14,761 nt of DNA from Candidatus Thorarchaeota archaeon (GTDB lineage Archaea; Asgardarchaeota; Thorarchaeia; Thorarchaeales; Thorarchaeaceae): positions 1 through 14,761 of the forward strand of contig PRDI01000031.1 of assembly GCA_003345595.1 (NCBI GenBank). Direction: 5' to 3'. The notes under the pieces were generated by a model that made no database searches, was not told the origin of the DNA, and saw only the letters and a list, made by a program, of their open reading frames with translations. Below, piece by piece: positions 4,532 through 14,079 of the stretch. A program made the translations under genes and the position numbers. Position 1 is the first letter of the stretch; the number at the start of each line of letters is the position of its first letter.

Positions 4532-4838
4532 GGATTCAGGGGGAACAAAGCATAGGATATGCTGACCGTAGACTATGAACAACAATTTCCTCGCCGAACG
4601 AAGAGACTCGACTTCACTCCTAAATCGCCCTAGCCAAAGACGTGATGCGCACAAATGCAGGTATGAACCAGAGGGTAGGCGTCAGATCCGAGATATGCAA
4701 GTCCGTAAATAGGAGTTCGCATATTCTCTGCTACTGTGCAAATCCAGTTCAGGGGGATTTAATCAAACTGGATGGAGCAGAAGAGGATACCAGAACCCTC
4801 TGTTTGGCATCGTTTACTCTTCAGGAGGCGGGTGCATA

Positions 4839-7800
4839 ATGAAGCATTATTGTAACAGGTATAGATTGAACTTAGGGCAACTTAGGAAGACAACGAGTTC
4901 CCTGACACTGTTTCTGCTACTGACGATAATGATTGTGGCTCCGGTCACTACGACTACACCGAAGGCAGTGGGCAGCGCTCTACAAGGAAGCACTGACCAT
5001 GGAAACAGGATTGTAGCTGGTGCTCCCAAGACAACCGGCCTATATTGGGCTAGGACTTACGGAGGCGTCAACTCTGATTCTCCAGCGTGGGTCCAGCAGA
5101 CCACGGATGGAGGTTACGCGATGACGGGAACCACATTCTCATCTGACTATAGCACCGCCTTTCTCTGGGTTGCAAAGCTCAACTGTTCAGGGGGTGTCAC
5201 ATGGCAGAAGACCTACGTAAACAGCAGCATCGCCACAGGGGCAGATTTCATTCAGCAGACCTCTGACGGCGGCTACATAGTGGCCGCAGGCATGACAACA
5301 GCTACGGCTCTAAGCACAGCTTGGATCTTGAAGCTTGCCGCCGATGGCTCGATGACGTGGCAGAAGACCTACGGAAGTAGCGGCACCAACGTATTCTATA
5401 TTGCCTCCATTCAGCAGACCTCTGACGGAGGCTACATAGGAGTAGGAGCAACAAACGCTTCTGGCGCAGGCGGCCCTGACATATGGGCTCTGAAGATCAC
5501 CTCAGATGGTTCAATAGAATGGCAGAAGACCTATGGAGGCACTAATGCCGATCAGGGAATCTTTGTTCAACAGACCATGGATGGAGGCTATATAGTAGGT
5601 GCGGAGACGGTGTCCTTCTCACAAGGTTCTGATGATTACTTGATTCTAAAGCTCAACTCAACTGGTGGGGTCACATGGCAGAAAACCTACGGAGGGACTT
5701 CTGCAGACGACCTGCACTTCATTCGACAGACACCGGATGGAGGGTACTTTGTAGGTGGACAGACAGGCTCTTTCGGTCCTATTGTTGGTACAAACGTCTG
5801 GGCATTGAGGCTCAATTCCACAGGCGGAGTAATCTGGCAAAATGCTTACGGAGGCATCAGCAGCAGTGGCGCTTTCTCCGGCGGCTTGGCGTCTGACGGG
5901 GGCTACATACTTGCGGGATACACATTTGGATATGGCGCAGGCGGCTCGGACGTTTGGGTCCTGAGGCTCAACTCCACAGGCGGAGTACTCTCGCAGAACG
6001 CCTACGGAGGCAGTGGTGATGAAGGTGCAGAATCTGTTCAACAGACCGAGGACGGAGGCTACATGATTGGCGCGCACACAGATTCGTTTGGTGCAGGCTT
6101 GGATGACTCTTGGTTGGTGAAGCTCAACAGCAATTGCTCAGTGGTATTCGACAAGGGCAGCGATGCATCATTGCACGCATCAAGCGCAGGTACCTACATC
6201 ACCAACGCCGTGATCACGACACCGTCTGTGACCATTGGAAATGCTATCGCGGTATCAGCTATCACGACAATAACACCTGTGGCCTCCAGTATGGAAGTGA
6301 TGACGCAGGCTACCCCGGACTTGACTCCACCCTCAACCATAACTAGTCTGGTTGTGAGCAACCCGAAGTACTACTCGATTGATTTGACTTGGACTGCTCC
6401 CGGAGACGACGGCATGAAGGGGAACGCCACGGGCTATGTCGTGAAGTACTCCACGTCGGGAGCAATTACGGCCGCGAATTGGGACTCCTCCATTACCTAT
6501 GACCAGACGTGGACTCCCGCCAAGAACGGTACAACAGAAACGCACACGATCAGTGGATTGCCTTCGGGCCTGAAGTATTGGTTCGCGGTCGAGGCCTATG
6601 ACGAAGTACCCAACCTTGGCGGCGTATCCAACAGTCCCAGTGCAACGACCATCGCGATAGCCGGTAGGTATTTCTCAAACACCTACCCGTATCATGCTCA
6701 TGCAGGTAGTCCAAGGGGCGTTCTACAGACACCCGACGAAGGTTACATAGTGGTGGGAGTAATAGGCAACGGCACATACGGCAGTGAGGATCTCTGGGTT
6801 CTTAAGCTGGACTCCGCCGGGGCAGTGACCTGGCAGAAGAGCTACGGAGGCAACCTCAGTGACTATGGGAACTCCATTGACTTGACCACCGATGGGGGCT
6901 ACATAGTTGCAGGCTACACCTACTCATTTGGCGCAGGCAGCATGGACGCTTGGGTTTTGAAGCTCAACTCCACTGGCGGTGTGACGTGGCAGAAGACCTA
7001 TGGAGGCACCAGCGGCGACGAGGCCAACTCTGTTCAGCAGACTGCAGACGGAGGCTACGTAGTCGCCGGGAATACCGGGTCGTTCGGCGCAGGCGGCTCA
7101 GATGTTTGGGTCTTGAAGCTAAATTCTACTGGCGGGGTGGCATGGCAGAAGACATTCGGAACGAGTGAGCCCGAGGGCGCGAAATGTGTTCAGCAGACAG
7201 TAGATGGAGGGTACATTGTAGCGGGATTCACGCGCCCCGGGACGACAGCTATCGGTATGTGGGTTCTGAAGCTCAACTCCAGTGGCGGACTGGCGTGGGA
7301 GAAGTACTACGTAATCCCCGTCTTCGAAAGCTTCGAAGCCGCTAGTTCTATCCAGCAGACTCTGGATGGGGGCTACATAGTGGCGGGTACATCGTTTGCA
7401 TATTATCCCAATGAGAGTGGAATCTGGGTACTGAAGCTGGACTCTAACGGCACAGTCGTCTGGCAGAAGAAGTACGGAGGCGACACATCCTTCTCTCCAT
7501 CTGTTCAGCAGACCCTTGACGGAGGTTACGTCGTTGTCGGATCAGCACAACACACCGACAAGAATGGCGTCTGGCGACGTGGTATCTGGATTGCGAAGCT
7601 GAACTCCACCGGCGGGGTGACATGGCAGGAGGTTTTTGCAGGCGGCAACTCGCGGGAGAGCATCTGGTGTGGTCCGTGGTCGGTTCAGCAGACCGTTGAC
7701 CAAGGATACGTAATAGGAGCAAACATTAATTGGGCTACGAATGGCAACTCAGAATTGTGGATAATCAAGCTTGACTACGAAGGAACATCCGTAGAATGGG

Positions 7801-8492
7801 ACGAGTACTTCTACTTGTCCACTTACACCACAAGCACAGTTCCCGTGAGCACCGATGCATACGTGATCCCTGTGGGTGACATACATACCTTCTACTCCCT
7901 GAACAGCTCTGCGATCATCCATGACACAAACGTAACACCAACAGACACTTTCGCGACCGTAAGGTCACAGAATGAGAACCCCGATACCACGCCGCCTGGA
8001 GAGATAACTGACCTTCACGCAAGCTCATATTGGAATTCGAATGGCTCCGGGATTACTGATTTCCGTATTCTGTTGTTTTGGTCACCACCGGGTGACGACA
8101 ACTACTCTGGAAACGCCACGGGCTACATAGTCAAGTACTCCATAACAGGGGCGATAACCGCCGCCAACTGGAGTTCCGCAACAACGTACAGTCAGTCTTG
8201 GATACCTCAAGCTCCGTATGCTCCCGGCAGGCCGTACTATCCGGGTATCGAGGCTTACAACATCACAGATCTGGGCGTTGGGCCAAGGAACTACTGGTTT
8301 GCAATAGTAGCCTACGACAATCAAGGTAACTATGGCAATGTTTCAAATTGCGCTATAGTAGGAATGCCATTGATAACGACAAGCACCACGACAACGTATA
8401 GCTCGCCTTGGCCCGCATTGGCGGCAAGTGCAGCAGTAATCTCCGTAGCGGTGGTTTTAGTGTATGTGTTTCTGAGGAGAAGGAAGGGATAG
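4839..8492 (+). CDS. Large membrane-anchored cell-surface glycoprotein: N-terminal signal/TM, 2x[7-repeat beta-propeller + linker + FN3], Thr/Ser stalk, C-terminal TM and basic tail
   Basis: Hydrophobic LTLFLLLTIMIVAPV after a basic N-region. 14 repeats of consensus QQTxDGGYIVxG...WVLKLNSTGGVTWQKTYGG. Two FN3-like domains (WTAPGDD/WSPPGDD...YWFAxxAYD). Ends TTSTTTT, TM, RRRKG. GGAGG at 4824-4828; exact start is uncertain. Confidence 0.9.
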   Translation: MKHYCNRYRLNLGQLRKTTSSLTLFLLLTIMIVAPVTTTTPKAVGSALQGSTDHGNRIVAGAPKTTGLYWARTYGGVNSDSPAWVQQTTDGGYAMTGTTFSSDYSTAFLWVAKLNCSGGVTWQKTYVNSSIATGADFIQQTSDGGYIVAAGMTTATALSTAWILKLAADGSMTWQKTYGSSGTNVFYIASIQQTSDGGYIGVGATNASGAGGPDIWALKITSDGSIEWQKTYGGTNADQGIFVQQTMDGGYIVGAETVSFSQGSDDYLILKLNSTGGVTWQKTYGGTSADDLHFIRQTPDGGYFVGGQTGSFGPIVGTNVWALRLNSTGGVIWQNAYGGISSSGAFSGGLASDGGYILAGYTFGYGAGGSDVWVLRLNSTGGVLSQNAYGGSGDEGAESVQQTEDGGYMIGAHTDSFGAGLDDSWLVKLNSNCSVVFDKGSDASLHASSAGTYITNAVITTPSVTIGNAIAVSAITTITPVASSMEVMTQATPDLTPPSTITSLVVSNPKYYSIDLTWTAPGDDGMKGNATGYVVKYSTSGAITAANWDSSITYDQTWTPAKNGTTETHTISGLPSGLKYWFAVEAYDEVPNLGGVSNSPSATTIAIAGRYFSNTYPYHAHAGSPRGVLQTPDEGYIVVGVIGNGTYGSEDLWVLKLDSAGAVTWQKSYGGNLSDYGNSIDLTTDGGYIVAGYTYSFGAGSMDAWVLKLNSTGGVTWQKTYGGTSGDEANSVQQTADGGYVVAGNTGSFGAGGSDVWVLKLNSTGGVAWQKTFGTSEPEGAKCVQQTVDGGYIVAGFTRPGTTAIGMWVLKLNSSGGLAWEKYYVIPVFESFEAASSIQQTLDGGYIVAGTSFAYYPNESGIWVLKLDSNGTVVWQKKYGGDTSFSPSVQQTLDGGYVVVGSAQHTDKNGVWRRGIWIAKLNSTGGVTWQEVFAGGNSRESIWCGPWSVQQTVDQGYVIGANINWATNGNSELWIIKLDYEGTSVEWDEYFYLSTYTTSTVPVSTDAYVIPVGDIHTFYSLNSSAIIHDTNVTPTDTFATVRSQNENPDTTPPGEITDLHASSYWNSNGSGITDFRILLFWSPPGDDNYSGNATGYIVKYSITGAITAANWSSATTYSQSWIPQAPYAPGRPYYPGIEAYNITDLGVGPRNYWFAIVAYDNQGNYGNVSNCAIVGMPLITTSTTTTYSSPWPALAASAAVISVAVVLVYVFLRRRKG
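5043..6130 (+). repeat. Intragenic repeat block 1: seven ~50-aa propeller-blade repeats
   Basis: Seven DGGY cores (QQTTD, QQTSD, QQTSD, QQTMD, RQTPD, LASD, QQTED). DNA near-identity between blades, e.g. 5249-5280 vs 5408-5439 (31/32). Boundaries approximate. Confidence 0.88.
6700..7780 (+). repeat. Intragenic repeat block 2: seven ~50-aa propeller-blade repeats
   Basis: Seven cores (LQTPDEGY, DLTTDGGY, QQTADGGY, QQTVDGGY, QQTLDGGY x2, QQTVDQGY). Boundaries approximate. Confidence 0.88.
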
Positions 8493-8532
8493 GCCAAGTC
8501 AAGCTGGCCGGACTTGGTCATTCCTTTTTCTT
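8492..8532 (+). terminator. Hairpin plus pyrimidine/T tract directly after the surface-protein stop
   Basis: Stem GGCCAAGTC (8492-8500) / GACTTGGTC (8511-8519), 9 bp with one G-U pair and a 10-nt loop, followed by TTCCTTTTTCTT (8521-8532). Confidence 0.6.
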
Positions 8533-8790
8533 GGAAAGTCACCTAGACTTCAGGCCATAGAAACGGAGTTTGCAGATGGCCGGAATCAGAGGCGGATGGA
8601 CGTCTAGGAGAGGAGTCTTCCCGCATTCACTCCTTTCTCCTCGTTCTCCTTCGGGAACTGCATTCTAGGGAATACCGCTACTTGGCGGCGGTCACATCAG
8701 TGTTTCCTGGGCTCAAGCATCGTAGGCCCGTCTTATGTGAAGAGACTTGGCACCGCAACTCCCACAAAGCCTCGATAGGCATGGAAGTGG

Positions 8791-8827
8791 TCATAGGCCA
8801 TTGATATTACTACCGAACCAAGGTTCG
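8791..8827. repeat. Copy 2 of the 29-bp direct repeat, ending in the inverted repeat CGAACC-AA-GGTTCG
   Basis: TCATAGGCCATTGATATTACTACCGAACC (8791-8819) is 25/29 identical to 4503-4531. Perfect 6-bp inverted repeat at 8814-8819/8822-8827. Confidence 0.8.
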
Positions 8828-8981
8828 TCAGTCAGCGTTGTAGGTAGGTGGCATAATCAGACGCTGTCTTCTCTTCACTAGGCAGACTAAAACCACGCGA
8901 GTCCATCTTATGATACGGACACGAAACTGATTTAGCACACGCATCTGACTACTGTTAGTGCCGGCTGAAAGAGGAATCAAG

Positions 8982-9788
8982 ATGAAGTGCTTCACGCTAC
9001 ACAGCTACAAAGGTGGCACTGGCAAGACTACTATTGCAGCCAATCTCGCTGTGATGCTCAGCCAGATGGGACGTAATGTGGCTCTCTTGGATCTGGACTT
9101 TCAAGCTCCGAGCTTGCACACACTCTTTGGCATCAGACCACAAACGACCTACATCAATGCCTACTTGGCCCAAGAGAAGACCCCGAAGGAGGTGCTGGTC
9201 GATCTGGCACCAAGTCTCAAACTCAAAGGCAGGCTCTTGGTCGGCTTTTCGGACCCCAATGTAGAGGCAATAAGGTCGCAGTTGGCACGCGACCGCAAGT
9301 GGCACATGCAGGCACTATCGCAGCTACTGAACCTCAAAGTGAGGTTGCAGGCTGAGGGAGCGGACTACATGATTCTTGATTCCGCACCCGGTGTACACTA
9401 CAGCAGTGTTAATGCTATAGTACTCTCGGACTTCACTGTCATAGTGGCCAAGATTGACAATTTCGACTTTGACGGGACTGTGAATGTGCTTGATGGTCTC
9501 TATACTCCTCTGAACAAACCGACACTCCTACTGTTCAACAAGGTCGTGCCGGCGCTCCTTGAGGAACCGCGGTATTCACAAGTACGAAAGACCATCGAAG
9601 ACACTTTCAGTTCAAAGACCAAGCTCATGGGATTCATACCCTGCTATTGTGATATCGCACTGGGAATGGGCAGCGAGATTCACGCGCTCACTCAACCGAA
9701 GATACCTTTTGTCCAGTCACTGAAGAAGATGGCTACAATACTTGAGAAGTGGCCGGGGCCGCAGGGGACAGCAAAAGGTGGTACCTGA
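8982..9788 (+). CDS. MinD/ParA-family (SIMIBI) P-loop ATPase
   Basis: Deviant Walker A HSYKGGTGKTT, switch I LLDLD, Walker B ILDSAPG, and FNKV. Start taken as ATG 8982 with GAGGA at 8971-8975 (ORF track uses GTG 8958). No obvious C-terminal amphipathic membrane-targeting sequence. Confidence 0.93.
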   Translation: MKCFTLHSYKGGTGKTTIAANLAVMLSQMGRNVALLDLDFQAPSLHTLFGIRPQTTYINAYLAQEKTPKEVLVDLAPSLKLKGRLLVGFSDPNVEAIRSQLARDRKWHMQALSQLLNLKVRLQAEGADYMILDSAPGVHYSSVNAIVLSDFTVIVAKIDNFDFDGTVNVLDGLYTPLNKPTLLLFNKVVPALLEEPRYSQVRKTIEDTFSSKTKLMGFIPCYCDIALGMGSEIHALTQPKIPFVQSLKKMATILEKWPGPQGTAKGGT

Positions 9789-10399
9789 TGATCAGAGCAG
9801 TGTACATCCTGATCGAAGGCGGTATCTGTATCTACAGCAGAGTATATGACACAGCACTAGCTGACTCAATGCTGATGAGCAGTTTCGTTTCCGCCATCAC
9901 TACGTTCAGCAGAGAGGCCATGGGCGATGAGCTGCGGGGGATTGAATCCGGTGGCCATTTTCTATTTGTGACCGACCACGACAAGATTTCCACAGTGATT
10001 GTCGCAGACACTCCTGGTGAAGTTAGCTCCAGTGTGATGGATTACATAGGGGTCAGTTTCCTGAGCATGTTCTCCGTCCATCTTCAGCACCAGATGAGTG
10101 ACACGTCAGTGTATCGCTCGTTTGATGAAGTGATTGACAGGATTGTTCCTCAGAAGGCGATTGCAGAGTCCAGAGTGGATCCGAGAGAGCCACTCGACGC
10201 TCTTAGCATCGTCGAAGTGCCAAGGTCAGTCAGGGACGCAGCGCTCGTTCTTCTCCGTAGACAAAGCCTGCAAGCCCAGCAGGCCGCCAGGGAGCTGTCA
10301 ATCGACATCAATGAAGCCGTTGAAAAGCTTGAGCGGCTAGTGAAGCTTGGTAAGGCCGGCCGCAAGGAAACGATAGAGGGTGTAGTCTACTTCATCTGA
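9788..10399 (+). CDS. Longin-like domain protein with C-terminal winged helix-turn-helix (203 aa)
   Basis: ATG overlaps the ATPase stop (TGATG 9786-9790), with SD-like AGGTGG just upstream. aa 1-120 fit the longin b-b-a-b-b-b-a-a pattern (IRAVYIL-GG-ICIYSR; DSMLMSSFVSAITTFSREAMG; three strands; helix; SDTSVYRSFDEVIDRIV). aa 135-203 fit a wHTH (AQQAARELSIDINEAVEKLERLVKLG + beta-hairpin ending VVYFI). Folds assigned by pattern recognition only. Confidence 0.75.
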   Translation: MIRAVYILIEGGICIYSRVYDTALADSMLMSSFVSAITTFSREAMGDELRGIESGGHFLFVTDHDKISTVIVADTPGEVSSSVMDYIGVSFLSMFSVHLQHQMSDTSVYRSFDEVIDRIVPQKAIAESRVDPREPLDALSIVEVPRSVRDAALVLLRRQSLQAQQAARELSIDINEAVEKLERLVKLGKAGRKETIEGVVYFI

Positions 10400-10426
10400 T
10401 TTCTGAGCGTACGATATATGCTCTGT

Positions 10427-10433
10427 CTTATTA
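10427..10433 (+). promoter_or_regulatory. Possible archaeal TATA box for a leaderless def transcript
   Basis: CTTATTA lies 25-31 nt upstream of ATG 10458, the spacing expected for a leaderless archaeal mRNA. No clear BRE. Confidence 0.3.
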
Positions 10434-10457
10434 GGCCAGGGCCATAGATAGGTTCTG

Positions 10458-10979
10458 ATGACAGTCAAGGACATACTGCTACTTGGAAACCCGAGGCTGT
10501 ATGAGGTGTCCAGCCGCGTAGACAGGGCAGAGCTGGATAAGCTGAGCTCTGTCATCCAAGATCTTCATGACACGATGATGGCCTTCAGAAGGAAGTATGG
10601 TGTGGGCAGAGCCATCGCGGCTCCTCAGATTGGCGTGATGAAGCGGCTTGTGTACTTGGAGATCGACAGGCCCGTGGTCTTCATCAACCCCCAGCTATCC
10701 AACAAGAGCCCTGAGATGATGGAGATATGGGACGACTGTATGAGCTTCCCGGACCTGCTTGTGAGGGTGTATCGCCACAGGCAATGCCGAATCGAGTTTA
10801 GGGGCGCGAAATGGGAAAGCAAGTCATTGGACCTTAAGGATGATATGTCCGAGCTCCTCCAGCATGAGTGCGATCACTTGGACGGTGTGCTTGCTGTTTC
10901 AAGGGCTATTGATGCGCGGTCCTTTGCCCTCACGAGCCAAAGGCACCTCCTACAGAACCGAGGGGTAAGCGGAGAGTAG
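10458..10979 (+). CDS. def: Peptide deformylase-family protein (variant motifs)
   Basis: ILLLGNPRL N-terminus, GRAIAAPQIG (motif 1 variant), FINP, WDDCMSFP (motif 2 variant retaining the metal Cys), QHECDHLDG (HExDH motif 3). Confidence 0.9.
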   Translation: MTVKDILLLGNPRLYEVSSRVDRAELDKLSSVIQDLHDTMMAFRRKYGVGRAIAAPQIGVMKRLVYLEIDRPVVFINPQLSNKSPEMMEIWDDCMSFPDLLVRVYRHRQCRIEFRGAKWESKSLDLKDDMSELLQHECDHLDGVLAVSRAIDARSFALTSQRHLLQNRGVSGE

Positions 10980-11064
10980 TCATGTTGTTGGGTTTCGACT
11001 TCGTTAGCAATTCTCTTATGCAGTTTTGTCCTCATGTAATGGTCGGCCAGCCGGGGTCTATTCC

Positions 11065-14000
11065 ATGAAGAGAAAAAGCGTTCTTATCCTTCTGGGCATC
11101 ATCTGTGGGACATCTATCGCGGCGGTTGTCTTGGGCTATGGCTGGTTACTGAACCAGATCATATACCAGCACACGTTTTCAAGTAAAGCGGGCGTTGATT
11201 ACTGGGCGACTTGGACCCTAGGAAACCGACTCTTCACAGCCTCTGCTCTTCTTACGCTCCTCAGTATGATTACACTACCTCAACGCTCGACATTCGTTGC
11301 ATTCATCACGGCGATATCTCAGATGGGCGGAACGGTCAGGCGCCTAGACTGGCCTTCGGCAGTTGCCTGGAGAGTGCTCGAGGCGTGTGGCTTCTTCGTA
11401 TTCTACGTTTCGACAGGCGGCTATTCGTTGACCGGCCAGAATGTAGCCTTTCTCATGATGATGCTGGATCTCGGCGCGATCTCGGTCACTCCAAATGATG
11501 TTGCGACTCTGTTCTCACTTCCTTTTGCTCCTGGCACATCTGCAGAATCGATTCAGAGTCTCGTGCCAGCCATGGAGGCATATCAGCTGTACATGGGACT
11601 AGTAGCGACCTTTCTGGCAGTCACTGCCGGTCGAATCGTGTTGAGCATTGCCACAGACCTCTTTGCCCAGAAGAGAGATATTCTGGAAGTCCTCTCCAAG
11701 GGTCTGCTCGTTGGTGCGTTGGTCTTGGCCATCGAGATCATGGGAGTACCGTTGTGGACTGTCAACGCAGGAACGTGGATGACATATCTGGCCTCTATCA
11801 TTGCCATGGGATCATGCATCGTGGGTTCGCTTGCACTTTTCGCATTTCGCGTCCGCTCTGGTGATGTCCGAACCCGGATAAGGGGGAAGATTACGCAGCT
11901 CGAGGAAGACCTGGCGAGGCTTCAAGGGGAGCTTCTGTCCGTTCGCCAAGAGTATGAAGGCGGGGCAATTGGTGCAGAGGATTACCGAAGCAAGGTCAAC
12001 ATGCTCTTGGAGGACAGATCAAATATCGCAGGCGAACTCAGACGGCTGAAGGTCGAAAGGCTCATACCAATTGGCGGCTCACCGCGCAGGTTCGGCTTGC
12101 TCGCAGTTGTTCTGATTGCGGTTGTTGTGATGCTCCCTGTAACGCAGGCATTCTATTATGGAATCCAAATGGATGGTGACAAGTTCATCGAATGGAAATT
12201 CGACCTTGAAACCCAGAAGGAGATTCAGCTGACAAGCTGGGCTGCTGGCACTCAGGGAATGAGCACCTTAACGCTGCGCGATCTTACACTAAACGCAACG
12301 CCTGAGAGTGAGTTGGAGTTCTTAACAACTGTGCGTCAGTGGGACCAAGATGCGAGTTACCTTCGGATGAAGAACCAAATAGGTGCCAACTGGATGCAGC
12401 TGGCTGACTCTGATATTACCTTTCTCCGCGAACATGAGTACTGGCTTGCCCCACTCACGCTCGACTATGACACTATTAGTACGAACTTCATCAACCAGCA
12501 TCTAATCTACACACACACAGAAGGTCTTGTTGTCCTCGATGCATATAGCGGCAACATCATCGAGAGCGACAACCTGGTCACACTGCTCAACCGTAGTGAG
12601 GGTATAGGCACCTACTATGGGGAAGGAATGGGGTTTGACGGTGTCGTGTTCGTCAATGTTCCCGGTTTTGACGAGGTCGGTAATGTCAGCTACCAGGGGC
12701 AGCCAGACTACACACTGAGAGGTTTCGAGTCATGGTTCTACATGCTCACAATGGGTCCTCAGGCTTGGTCCTTCCTTGGTCGTGACCTCAACATGCTCGC
12801 TCAAAGGGATGTCCTCTCGAGAGTCAACAGGATATTGCTGCAAGGTTTGGTTGCTGATTCGGACCCGTACATAGCGGTAGACCCTGTGGGTAATATCTAC
12901 TACGCGGTATCAGTATATGCCGACTATAAGCTGGCCACATCCTATGCCCGCGAGAACTACATGCGATTCATGGGCGTTGTTCTTGTTGATGTGGGAACCG
13001 GTGTCATGCGCTTCTACAGGTCTCCGACTGTGGACACAACATTCTTCATTGACAAGCTCTTCAGTGATTACTATCCTTGGCAGGAAACACCCTCTTGGCT
13101 TCAGTCACAGATGAAGTGGCCCGAGGATCTGTACGAGCGTCAACTCAATGTGGCCTACACATATCACGTTACAAACGGCTTCATCTGGAGAAGCGGAGTA
13201 GACTTCCATTCTGCACCTGGGGAGTATGACACACGGTACATCATCATGCGGATCGCAGGGGTCGATCGATTCGTTGCCACGCACAATGTGGAGTTTCTCA
13301 ACTCACCCGGAAAGAATCTCGCAGGTCTCTATGTCATGGGTTGTGGTGACAGAAGCTTCGGGCAGCTGACCTTCTATGGCTCAGGCAGTATTGGCTCTTC
13401 CACCCTCATTGGACCTGAGGCCGCGCGTCAGGCGTTTCTGACTAGCGATAACGTAAGGGATCAGCTGACACTCTGGGGCACTTTCAGGTATGGCAACATC
13501 CTGCTGTATCACTTGGGCGGAGAGGTGCTATTCGTGATTCCTGTCTTCCTTCAAGTGGAAACGACTGAGAACAGGGTGATTGAGAAGCTGGGCGGCGTGG
13601 GACTTGTCGATGCGGAAACAGGCTCCCATGTTGCGCTAGGTAGCAATGTGGTCGAGGCATACAGTCTGATGTTCGGGCTGTTGAACAAGACGACCACCTT
13701 GCCGGGTACGGTCGGGCTTGAGAGTGCGACCTTCAGTCCTGCGACTGTCCAATCCGGTTCTGCGTCAGAACTTGTCGCTCTCATGAGGAACAACGATAAT
13801 GTGACCCACAGTCTGTTCCTCGATGTGATAGTTGGAGCAGGCAACTTCTCGGTTCAGTGGCACGGAACAGAGGTTACCCCCACGCTATATCCCACGAACA
13901 CCACATTCACTCTTGACATTGGCATGATTGGTTCTACTGATCTGTATGGCACTTCGCCGAAAGTGACCGCCTATCTTCCTTCGGGGATTGTGTCTGCAAC

Positions 14001-14079
14001 CTATCTGGTCACTCTAGTGCTCAGGACGGAAGAAGGTGTGGTGGACGAGCTCAGCCTATTCATTACAGTCGTCGTATAG
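11065..14079 (+). CDS. UPF0182-family integral membrane protein, archaeal type, with coiled-coil insertion and C-terminal Ig-like extension
   Basis: Several hydrophobic TM segments in the N-terminal ~370 aa, then a large soluble region with VRQWD, HLIYTHTEG, YYGE, DPY, YMR, P-x-DLYERQ...YHVT, NLAGL, GNILLY-x7-FVIPVF, recalled as UPF0182 hallmarks. Start moved to ATG 11065 (MKRKSVLILL). Confidence 0.82.
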   Translation: MKRKSVLILLGIICGTSIAAVVLGYGWLLNQIIYQHTFSSKAGVDYWATWTLGNRLFTASALLTLLSMITLPQRSTFVAFITAISQMGGTVRRLDWPSAVAWRVLEACGFFVFYVSTGGYSLTGQNVAFLMMMLDLGAISVTPNDVATLFSLPFAPGTSAESIQSLVPAMEAYQLYMGLVATFLAVTAGRIVLSIATDLFAQKRDILEVLSKGLLVGALVLAIEIMGVPLWTVNAGTWMTYLASIIAMGSCIVGSLALFAFRVRSGDVRTRIRGKITQLEEDLARLQGELLSVRQEYEGGAIGAEDYRSKVNMLLEDRSNIAGELRRLKVERLIPIGGSPRRFGLLAVVLIAVVVMLPVTQAFYYGIQMDGDKFIEWKFDLETQKEIQLTSWAAGTQGMSTLTLRDLTLNATPESELEFLTTVRQWDQDASYLRMKNQIGANWMQLADSDITFLREHEYWLAPLTLDYDTISTNFINQHLIYTHTEGLVVLDAYSGNIIESDNLVTLLNRSEGIGTYYGEGMGFDGVVFVNVPGFDEVGNVSYQGQPDYTLRGFESWFYMLTMGPQAWSFLGRDLNMLAQRDVLSRVNRILLQGLVADSDPYIAVDPVGNIYYAVSVYADYKLATSYARENYMRFMGVVLVDVGTGVMRFYRSPTVDTTFFIDKLFSDYYPWQETPSWLQSQMKWPEDLYERQLNVAYTYHVTNGFIWRSGVDFHSAPGEYDTRYIIMRIAGVDRFVATHNVEFLNSPGKNLAGLYVMGCGDRSFGQLTFYGSGSIGSSTLIGPEAARQAFLTSDNVRDQLTLWGTFRYGNILLYHLGGEVLFVIPVFLQVETTENRVIEKLGGVGLVDAETGSHVALGSNVVEAYSLMFGLLNKTTTLPGTVGLESATFSPATVQSGSASELVALMRNNDNVTHSLFLDVIVGAGNFSVQWHGTEVTPTLYPTNTTFTLDIGMIGSTDLYGTSPKVTAYLPSGIVSATYLVTLVLRTEEGVVDELSLFITVVV

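Follow-up and report, generated by a model that had tools for sequence, protein, structure and literature searches.

The window analysed here, positions 1–14,761 of contig PRDI01000031.1 from a Candidatus Thorarchaeota archaeon (GenBank assembly GCA_003345595.1), carries a pair of adjacent genes on its forward strand that we call A and B. A encodes an ATPase of the ParA/MinD class (SIMIBI), and B encodes a protein in which a longin domain is followed by a winged helix-turn-helix (wHTH) domain. It is very likely that the two are functionally coupled. We further propose that they form a dedicated two-gene Asgard operon, with A as an ATPase switch and B as its cognate partner, and that this operon has a cellular role; our confidence in this fuller assignment is evenly divided.

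The distribution of the pair was surveyed in 301 genomes of the phylum (linkage counts refer to loci with enough flanking sequence). Full-length homologues of B were found in five families, labelled here f1 (16 out of 77 genomes at E < 1e-50), f2, f14, f22 and f24, and the close relatives come from metagenome-assembled genomes (MAGs) of Candidatus Thorarchaeota/Promethearchaeota, in agreement with the Asgard setting proposed in an earlier note on this DNA. The longin domain alone is found nearly everywhere in these genomes, in many architectures. An A-type ATPase gene lies directly 5' of B on the same strand at 29 out of 31 loci, from five Asgard families; the earlier note had raised the prospect of an adjacency unique to one genome, and the neighbourhood survey shows it to be widespread. 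The linkage holds even where B identity is only 20–28%, and in f22 the genes are arranged as A-B-B or B-A-B. The two genes overlap, or lie at most about 20 nt apart, in most orthologous loci. Judging from these counts, the adjacency is far more common than chance would produce, and the cassette is old, having arisen before several Asgard families diverged. A maximum-likelihood tree groups every B-linked ATPase in a single, moderately supported clade (89/89), with sub-clades that follow the host families. Mean pairwise identity among orthologues is 57% for A, 59% for the longin domain of B and 48% for its wHTH domain; such similar, moderate rates are not the pattern of an arms race.

At the junction of the two genes in the window, the stop codon of A overlaps the start codon of B (TGATG) and a Shine-Dalgarno (SD)-like element lies inside the end of A (Table 1), as the earlier note had read, and translational coupling is plausible. 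Terminator-like elements flank the pair on both sides, which gives A-B the look of a bicistronic unit of its own. No Rfam family has a match in the window.

A is predicted to be a deviant-Walker-A SIMIBI ATPase of the ParA/MinD superfamily with its motifs intact. Its product begins with MKCFTLHSYKGGTGKTT. The protein scores above the gathering cut-offs of three Pfam families (AAA_31, 60.6 bits; CbiA, 56.3 bits; ParA, 51.8 bits), the solved structures closest to it are those of archaeal MinD and Soj, and the deviant Walker A that the earlier note had seen is intact (KGGTGKT). Among 22 family members K10, G11, G12 and G14 of the Walker A motif are invariant, and K15 is replaced by arginine (KGGTGRT) in only two, the lineages L021 and L023. 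A reaches no curated NCBIfam family: its best match is NF047398 (KGGVGR-variant AAA ATPase domain), with 67 bits against a cut-off of 90 bits. This model matches all 22 family ATPases and is the top match for at most 19 of them (L035, at least, scores higher on MrpORP); the members scored singly obtain 47–67 bits, below the same cut-off.

B has no significant match in Pfam, NCBIfam or the PDB sequences, with ParB, MinE and MinC included in these searches. The claim that the partner resembles none of ParB, MinE, MinC and SegB stands therefore for the first three, SegB itself not having been compared. The AlphaFold2 model of B (16 homologues in the alignment; predicted local distance difference test score, pLDDT, of 77) shows a bb-a-bbb-aa domain over residues 1–120, then a C-terminal H-S-H-H-S-S domain. 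In VIA structure comparisons its top 23 matches are all longin domains (Z 9.9–11.8, 102–122 residues aligned), among them those of VAMP7, Sec22, AP mu/sigma, COPI delta/zeta, TRAPP, SRX, Fuzzy and Mon1; roadblock domains score lower (Z 8.6). Foldseek returns Mon1/Ccz1, AP sigma/mu and zeta-COP at E of about 1e-4. Searched against 1.84 billion cluster representatives, the profile of the B family recovers 688 proteins (E ≤ 0.001), and these relatives include longins fused to Arf/Ras-like GTPases (e.g. P0066). Pfam Fuz_longin_1 matches one relative, P0108, with 30.1 bits (cut-off 26.1) and P0066 with 22 bits.

The C-terminal part of B (residues 137–203) matches TFE-alpha with a VIA Z of 9.8 (root-mean-square deviation 1.4–1.6 Å over 66–67 residues), and further winged-helix matches include ArsR, MarR, MecI, TrmBL2, RPC62 and ESCRT-II. 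On the model, the N-terminal domain of B is predicted to be a longin fold and the C-terminal domain a winged-helix fold, with putative DNA binding; this is how the earlier note had read the partner, and model topology, VIA and Foldseek agree with it. A motif in the linker between the domains is a candidate interaction element: its P132 and L136 are 90% conserved among 59 family members.

A second, paralogous ParA operon is found outside the window in the same genome (G000; contig C23, loci L052 and L065). Its ATPase, P0171 (251 a.a.), shares 30% identity with A and has the motifs RGGTGKS and DTDVASPG. The gene order here is a 319-a.a. longin-wHTH relative, then P0170, then P0171, and the start of P0171 overlaps the end of P0170. 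The N-terminal domain of P0170 is homologous to the longin of B (hhalign probability 96.7%, E 4e-10), and the model of P0170 has a longin, then a roadblock-like domain, then two wHTH domains. Foldseek ranks Fuzzy/Inturned, Mon1-Ccz1, BLOC-3 and GATOR1/SEACIT subunits highest for it (E 5e-8 to 1e-6), with TM-scores that are low (0.2–0.26) because of domain orientation, so the similarity is at the level of domains only. Homologues of P0170 are present in 13 out of 13 sampled f1 genomes and 12 out of 12 sampled f12 genomes, and a P0171-type ParA gene adjoins the P0170 homologue in 24 out of 26 loci. The P0171 clade (98/96) is sister to the clade of B-linked ATPases. Two ParA operons with two gene orders suggest that the association of ParA with longin-wHTH proteins is a recurrent, and probably ancestral, theme. 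Other paralogues of the B longin in this genome (contigs C47, C119, C50 and C68) have no ParA-type match within 1.5-kb flanks.

We suggest that A would work as an ATP-dependent dimerizing switch, catalytically intact as far as its motifs indicate. The longin of B would be a platform that docks on the ATPase and regulates it, as longin/roadblock domains do for small GTPases, and the winged helix would couple the complex to DNA or another macromolecule. Direct binding of B to A is probable, and we infer that the longin regulates ATP turnover; binding of DNA by the wHTH domain is a fair way from assured, and we would put it a little short of an even chance. A complex prediction with A and B each given as an alignment scored 0.00, which counts neither for nor against binding.

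The genomic surroundings of the pair speak for a function in the cell, either in DNA- or nucleoid-associated organization or as a regulatory switch, rather than for defence. The neighbours are a Fer4 protein, a deformylase and UPF0182 in f1, and a peptidase, a radical SAM protein and an H+-PPase in f14; no defence genes were found near the pair in the four lineages examined, where the neighbours are housekeeping genes. PADLOC gave only weak generic P-loop matches for A and one marginal match for B, and no relatives of B were found in PLSDB plasmids, INPHARED phages or IMG/VR contigs. GC content is uniform around the pair, and no flanking repeats were found. The block of surface protein, A, B and deformylase (window about 4839–10979) is cleanly absent from two congeneric genomes (G116 and G155) and from two other genera, all of which keep the order enolase-apgM-(UDP-glucose dehydrogenase)-Fer4-UPF0182 with Fer4 abutting UPF0182, and A-B alone occupies the same slot in another genus. 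Since congeners lack the pair at the same site, it cannot be essential. The pair is chromosomal, vertically inherited and dispensable. In f22 (L061, that is G259:C1:921000-940000; L058; L059), the B-A-B or A-B-B cluster adjoins a NurA-HerA-Mre11-Rad50 operon and a gene for a DEAD/MZB (MrfA-like) helicase.

Several observations weigh against the proposal of an operon with a cellular role. Of the four genomes of its own genus that were searched (the present genome included), two lack the pair at this site, as do other genera, and such patchiness would equally suit an accessory or defence function. B is strongly acidic, with a net charge near −12 on the longin and near −1.6 on the putative recognition helix, and only the wing is basic. 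Such a charge pattern is atypical of a centromere- or operator-binding protein, and it makes tethering to DNA by B less secure than the earlier note had assumed. The wide family of B longins has no universally conserved arginine that might serve as a catalytic finger. The 460-nt region upstream of A contains only chance-level short repeats and no palindromes as candidate binding sites. The ATPase tree is supportive and not conclusive, because it has only five Mrp-like outgroups and long branches.

By architecture, the closest described system to A-B is the mainly archaeal ParA-wHTH system of the ConB2 assemblage, a computational prediction by Li, Burroughs and Aravind (October 2026, section 20; bioRxiv 10.64898/2026.10.19.760177) in which some wHTH domains are joined to a profilin/longin-like domain; membership of A-B in this clade is putative. 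The earlier note had offered the pairing as a candidate undescribed system, and that claim has to be given up. Both systems couple a ParA gene to a wHTH gene, with the longin-type fusion optional in ParA-wHTH, and the minimal form of ParA-wHTH likewise has two genes and no effector. The hallmarks given for ConB2 are a Walker A motif whose second lysine has become arginine (KGGVGR) and PG after DxD (sensor-1) (bioRxiv 10.64898/2026.10.19.760177). A, however, keeps the lysine (KGGTGKT) and reads DLDFQAPSLH, with an invariant proline followed by serine instead of PG (the position being taken from the text of the preprint). There is partial likeness elsewhere: the paralogue P0171 has SPG (DTDVASPG), and L021 and L023 have KGGTGRT.

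ParA-wHTH has been hypothesized to intercept invader DNA (bioRxiv 10.64898/2026.10.19.760177), and A-B could by the same token provide immunity against mobile elements, with the wHTH recognizing invader DNA, ParA coating or intercepting it and the longin-like domain multimerizing. We consider this unlikely. The shared architecture, the sub-threshold top matches to the KGGVGR-variant family NF047398, the ConB2-typical Lys to Arg change in two sister lineages and the patchy distribution within one genus are in its favour. But the Walker A lysine of A and the APS after its DxD are not those of ConB2, the wHTH domain of B shows no rapid evolution when set beside the longin or the ATPase, and an effector gene is not present; the context is syntenic and of housekeeping type, with no defence island, and different genera have the pair in the same chromosomal slot. 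Nothing in this analysis supports the immune reading.

A role in DNA partition or chromosome segregation, with B as a centromere-binding adaptor that stimulates A, is improbable, and we rank it below immunity. SegAB of Sulfolobus and the type Ib ParA/ParG systems likewise have, after the ParA gene, one for a small partner that is specific to the lineage and has a DNA-binding-type fold. The two-gene order, in which ParA comes first and a small winged-helix protein second, the DNA-end-processing operon next to the pair in f22 and the Lys/Pro-rich basic tail that ends some orthologues of A would all suit partition. In contrast to SegAB and ParG, A-B has no centromere-like repeats (neither repeat arrays nor palindromes lie up- or downstream of the pair, and the repeats within window 4600–11100 are all inside the upstream surface-protein gene), its partner is acidic and built on a longin, and the chromosomal pair is optional, being missing from many complete relatives, with no relatives on the plasmid, phage and viral contigs searched. 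B shows no similarity to ParB, ParG or a SegB-type family in the Pfam and NCBIfam searches, which did not compare SegB itself.

Less probable again is an ATP-gated transcription switch, in which B would be a winged-helix regulator controlled by the ATPase in the way that the MinD-like FleN controls FleQ. FleN-FleQ is similar in that a MinD/ParA-class ATPase acts on a DNA-binding regulator and not on a centromere, but FleQ is an AAA+ enhancer-binding protein with no longin, and no such two-gene operonic cassette is involved. The wHTH domain of B does resemble TFE-alpha, ArsR, MarR, MecI and TrmB-type regulators, the longin could be a sensor or docking module, and the operon looks self-contained between its terminator-like elements. 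The acidic recognition helix is variable, however, the region upstream of A has no operator-like inverted repeat above chance, and the genes beside the pair that might be targets are not conserved across lineages.

That A and B are mere neighbours without a functional connection is very improbable: the complex prediction gives no supporting signal, no fused A-B protein was found among the longer relatives of A (E ≤ 1e-10) and no long relative of the B longin has a ParA domain, all of them weak negatives, but order and strand are kept in five families down to the lowest B identities, the spacing is tight in most loci, and a second operon likewise joins a paralogous ParA to longin-wHTH proteins.

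Table 1. Positions of the A-B pair, its motifs and its neighbours in the window, and of the paralogous operon at locus L052
Feature	Position	Strand	Basis or remark
Gene A, 268-a.a. ParA/MinD-class (SIMIBI) ATPase	8982..9788	+	Open reading frame (ORF), Pfam, start aligned with orthologues
GAGG, SD-like, 7 nt 5' of gene A ATG	8971..8974	+	Read from sequence; consensus resemblance only
Deviant Walker A, K10-G-G-T-G-K15-T-T	9009..9032	+	Signature Lys10, P-loop Lys15
Switch I/DxD, D37-L-D39, then FQAPS	9090..9098	+	D39 and P43 invariant in family alignment
Walker B region, M-I-L-D133-S-A-P-G	9369..9392	+	D133, P136 and G137 invariant in family alignment
GGTGG, SD-like for gene B, within 3' end of A, 6 nt 5' of B ATG	9777..9781	+	Read from sequence
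TGATG stop/start overlap of A and B	9786..9790	+	TGA 9786-9788, ATG 9788-9790, one base in common
Gene B, 203-a.a. longin plus winged-helix protein	9788..10399	+	ORF, AlphaFold2 model, structure comparisons
Predicted longin domain of B, residues 1-125	9788..10162	+	bb-a-bbb-aa topology, VIA matches, homology to GTPase-fused longins
Linker motif of B, P132-x-x-P-L-D-x-L139	10181..10204	+	Invariant in 16 orthologues
Predicted wHTH domain of B, residues 137-203	10196..10396	+	pLDDT about 90, H-S-H-H-S-S
Terminator-like hairpin and T-rich tail, just 3' of gene B	10405..10423	+	Consensus scan only
Similar terminator-like element, 3' of upstream gene	8505-8520		Consensus scan only
Predicted surface protein, 1217 a.a.	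4839-8492	+	
Peptide deformylase homologue	10458-10979	+	Pfam Pep_deformylase, E 3e-34
UPF0182 multi-pass membrane protein, 1017 a.a.	11026-14079	+	
P0171, ParA paralogue	L052:1492-2244	minus	
P0170, 442-a.a. longin-roadblock-wHTH partner	L052:2237-3562	minus	

Other assignments for A were considered and rejected. A is not MinD proper: it scores 52.6 bits on TIGR01969 (cut-off 201.75) and 42.1 bits on TIGR01968 (cut-off 212.9), the C-terminal tails in its family are variable and have no conserved amphipathic helix, and the window has no MinE or MinC. It is not a ParA of ParABS or plasmid partition type either, with 58.4 bits on NF041546 (cut-off 180), no ParB match for B and no repeat arrays. 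We also weighed whether C221-x-C223 of A and C14 of B might jointly have an Fe-S or metal role, and dropped the idea: the CxC motif occurs only in the close f1/f2 family, is missing there from L012, L021 and L023, and is tracked inconsistently by the loss of Cys14 in B. The sister lineages L021 (G037) and L023 (G212) combine KGGTGRT with a change of CYC to YYP in A and of Cys14 to Ile or Ser in B, a triple change that may be a coordinated shift towards a slow-hydrolysing switch.

The other genes of the variable slot were also inspected. The predicted surface protein, part of the block absent from congeners, has an N-terminal signal/transmembrane segment, fibronectin type III domains and a C-terminal transmembrane anchor, and contains about 13 copies of a 52-a.a. 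(156-nt) repeat, W..KL...G...WQKTYGG ... QQT.DGGY. The deformylase homologue, here in an archaeon, is encoded directly 3' of B in the window and in two other genera (L063 and L064) and is absent, along with A-B, from two congeners; its orthologue in G124 has an in-frame TGA. The UPF0182 protein (62–70% identity, syntenic across the family) marks the right-hand edge of the slot.

Among known systems outside the ParA class, NPRL2/NPRL3 (GATOR1/SEACIT) and the tri-longin Rab guanine nucleotide exchange factors (RabGEFs; Mon1-Ccz1, Fuzzy-Inturned and BLOC-3) are, like B, longin-first proteins, and they regulate nucleoside triphosphatases (NTPases). Eukaryotic Npr2/Npr3 have an N-terminal longin and C-terminal tandem wHTH domains (Zhang et al., PMC3521125), the same order as in B, and the longin of B matches those of Mon1, Ccz1 and Fuzzy. 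The clients of these proteins are TRAFAC small GTPases (Rag and Rab), however, and not SIMIBI ParA proteins, and they have extra domains; no membership of NPRL2/3 was found at the sequence level, with no match to Pfam NPR2 or NPR3. NPRL2-like longin families are reported in most Thor MAGs by Liu et al. (bioRxiv 10.1101/2020.10.19.343400), where ParA/MinD is not mentioned. MglA-MglB and the Asgard modules of longin/roadblock proteins with small GTPases are likewise operonic, with an NTPase switch and a regulator of the longin/roadblock superfamily, but the NTPase of A-B is of the deviant-Walker-A type, which dimerizes as an ATP sandwich, and its partner also has a wHTH domain. In SR-alpha/SR-beta a longin (SRX, among the top matches of B with Z 8.8–11.1) is associated with a SIMIBI NTPase, but there SRX binds the Arf-like SR-beta and not the SIMIBI domain, in a single polypeptide with no wHTH.

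Two Thorarchaeota operons, one optional and one present in all sampled f1 and f12 genomes, with partners that resemble NPRL2/3 and Mon1/Fuzzy, suggest a cellular role. It would differ from the only published interpretation, itself computational, and it is based on genomics and predicted structures. More speculatively, and with low confidence, Asgard longin-wHTH proteins, which follow the domain logic of NPRL2/NPRL3 and whose larger paralogues are like tri-longin exchange factors, might be native regulators of a dedicated ParA-type SIMIBI clade, together making up a switch or positioning system that is chromosomal and non-immune. In that case the longin platform would have serviced ATP-sandwich ATPases in the archaeal ancestors, either earlier than or in parallel with its adoption by Rag- and Rab-type GTPases in eukaryotes. 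In eukaryotes, both membrane traffic and nutrient signalling have longin domains as hallmark regulators of their small GTPases, and no known organisms are more closely related to eukaryotes than Asgard archaea. A-B is a simple two-protein system that could show whether longin platforms can regulate another class of NTPases.

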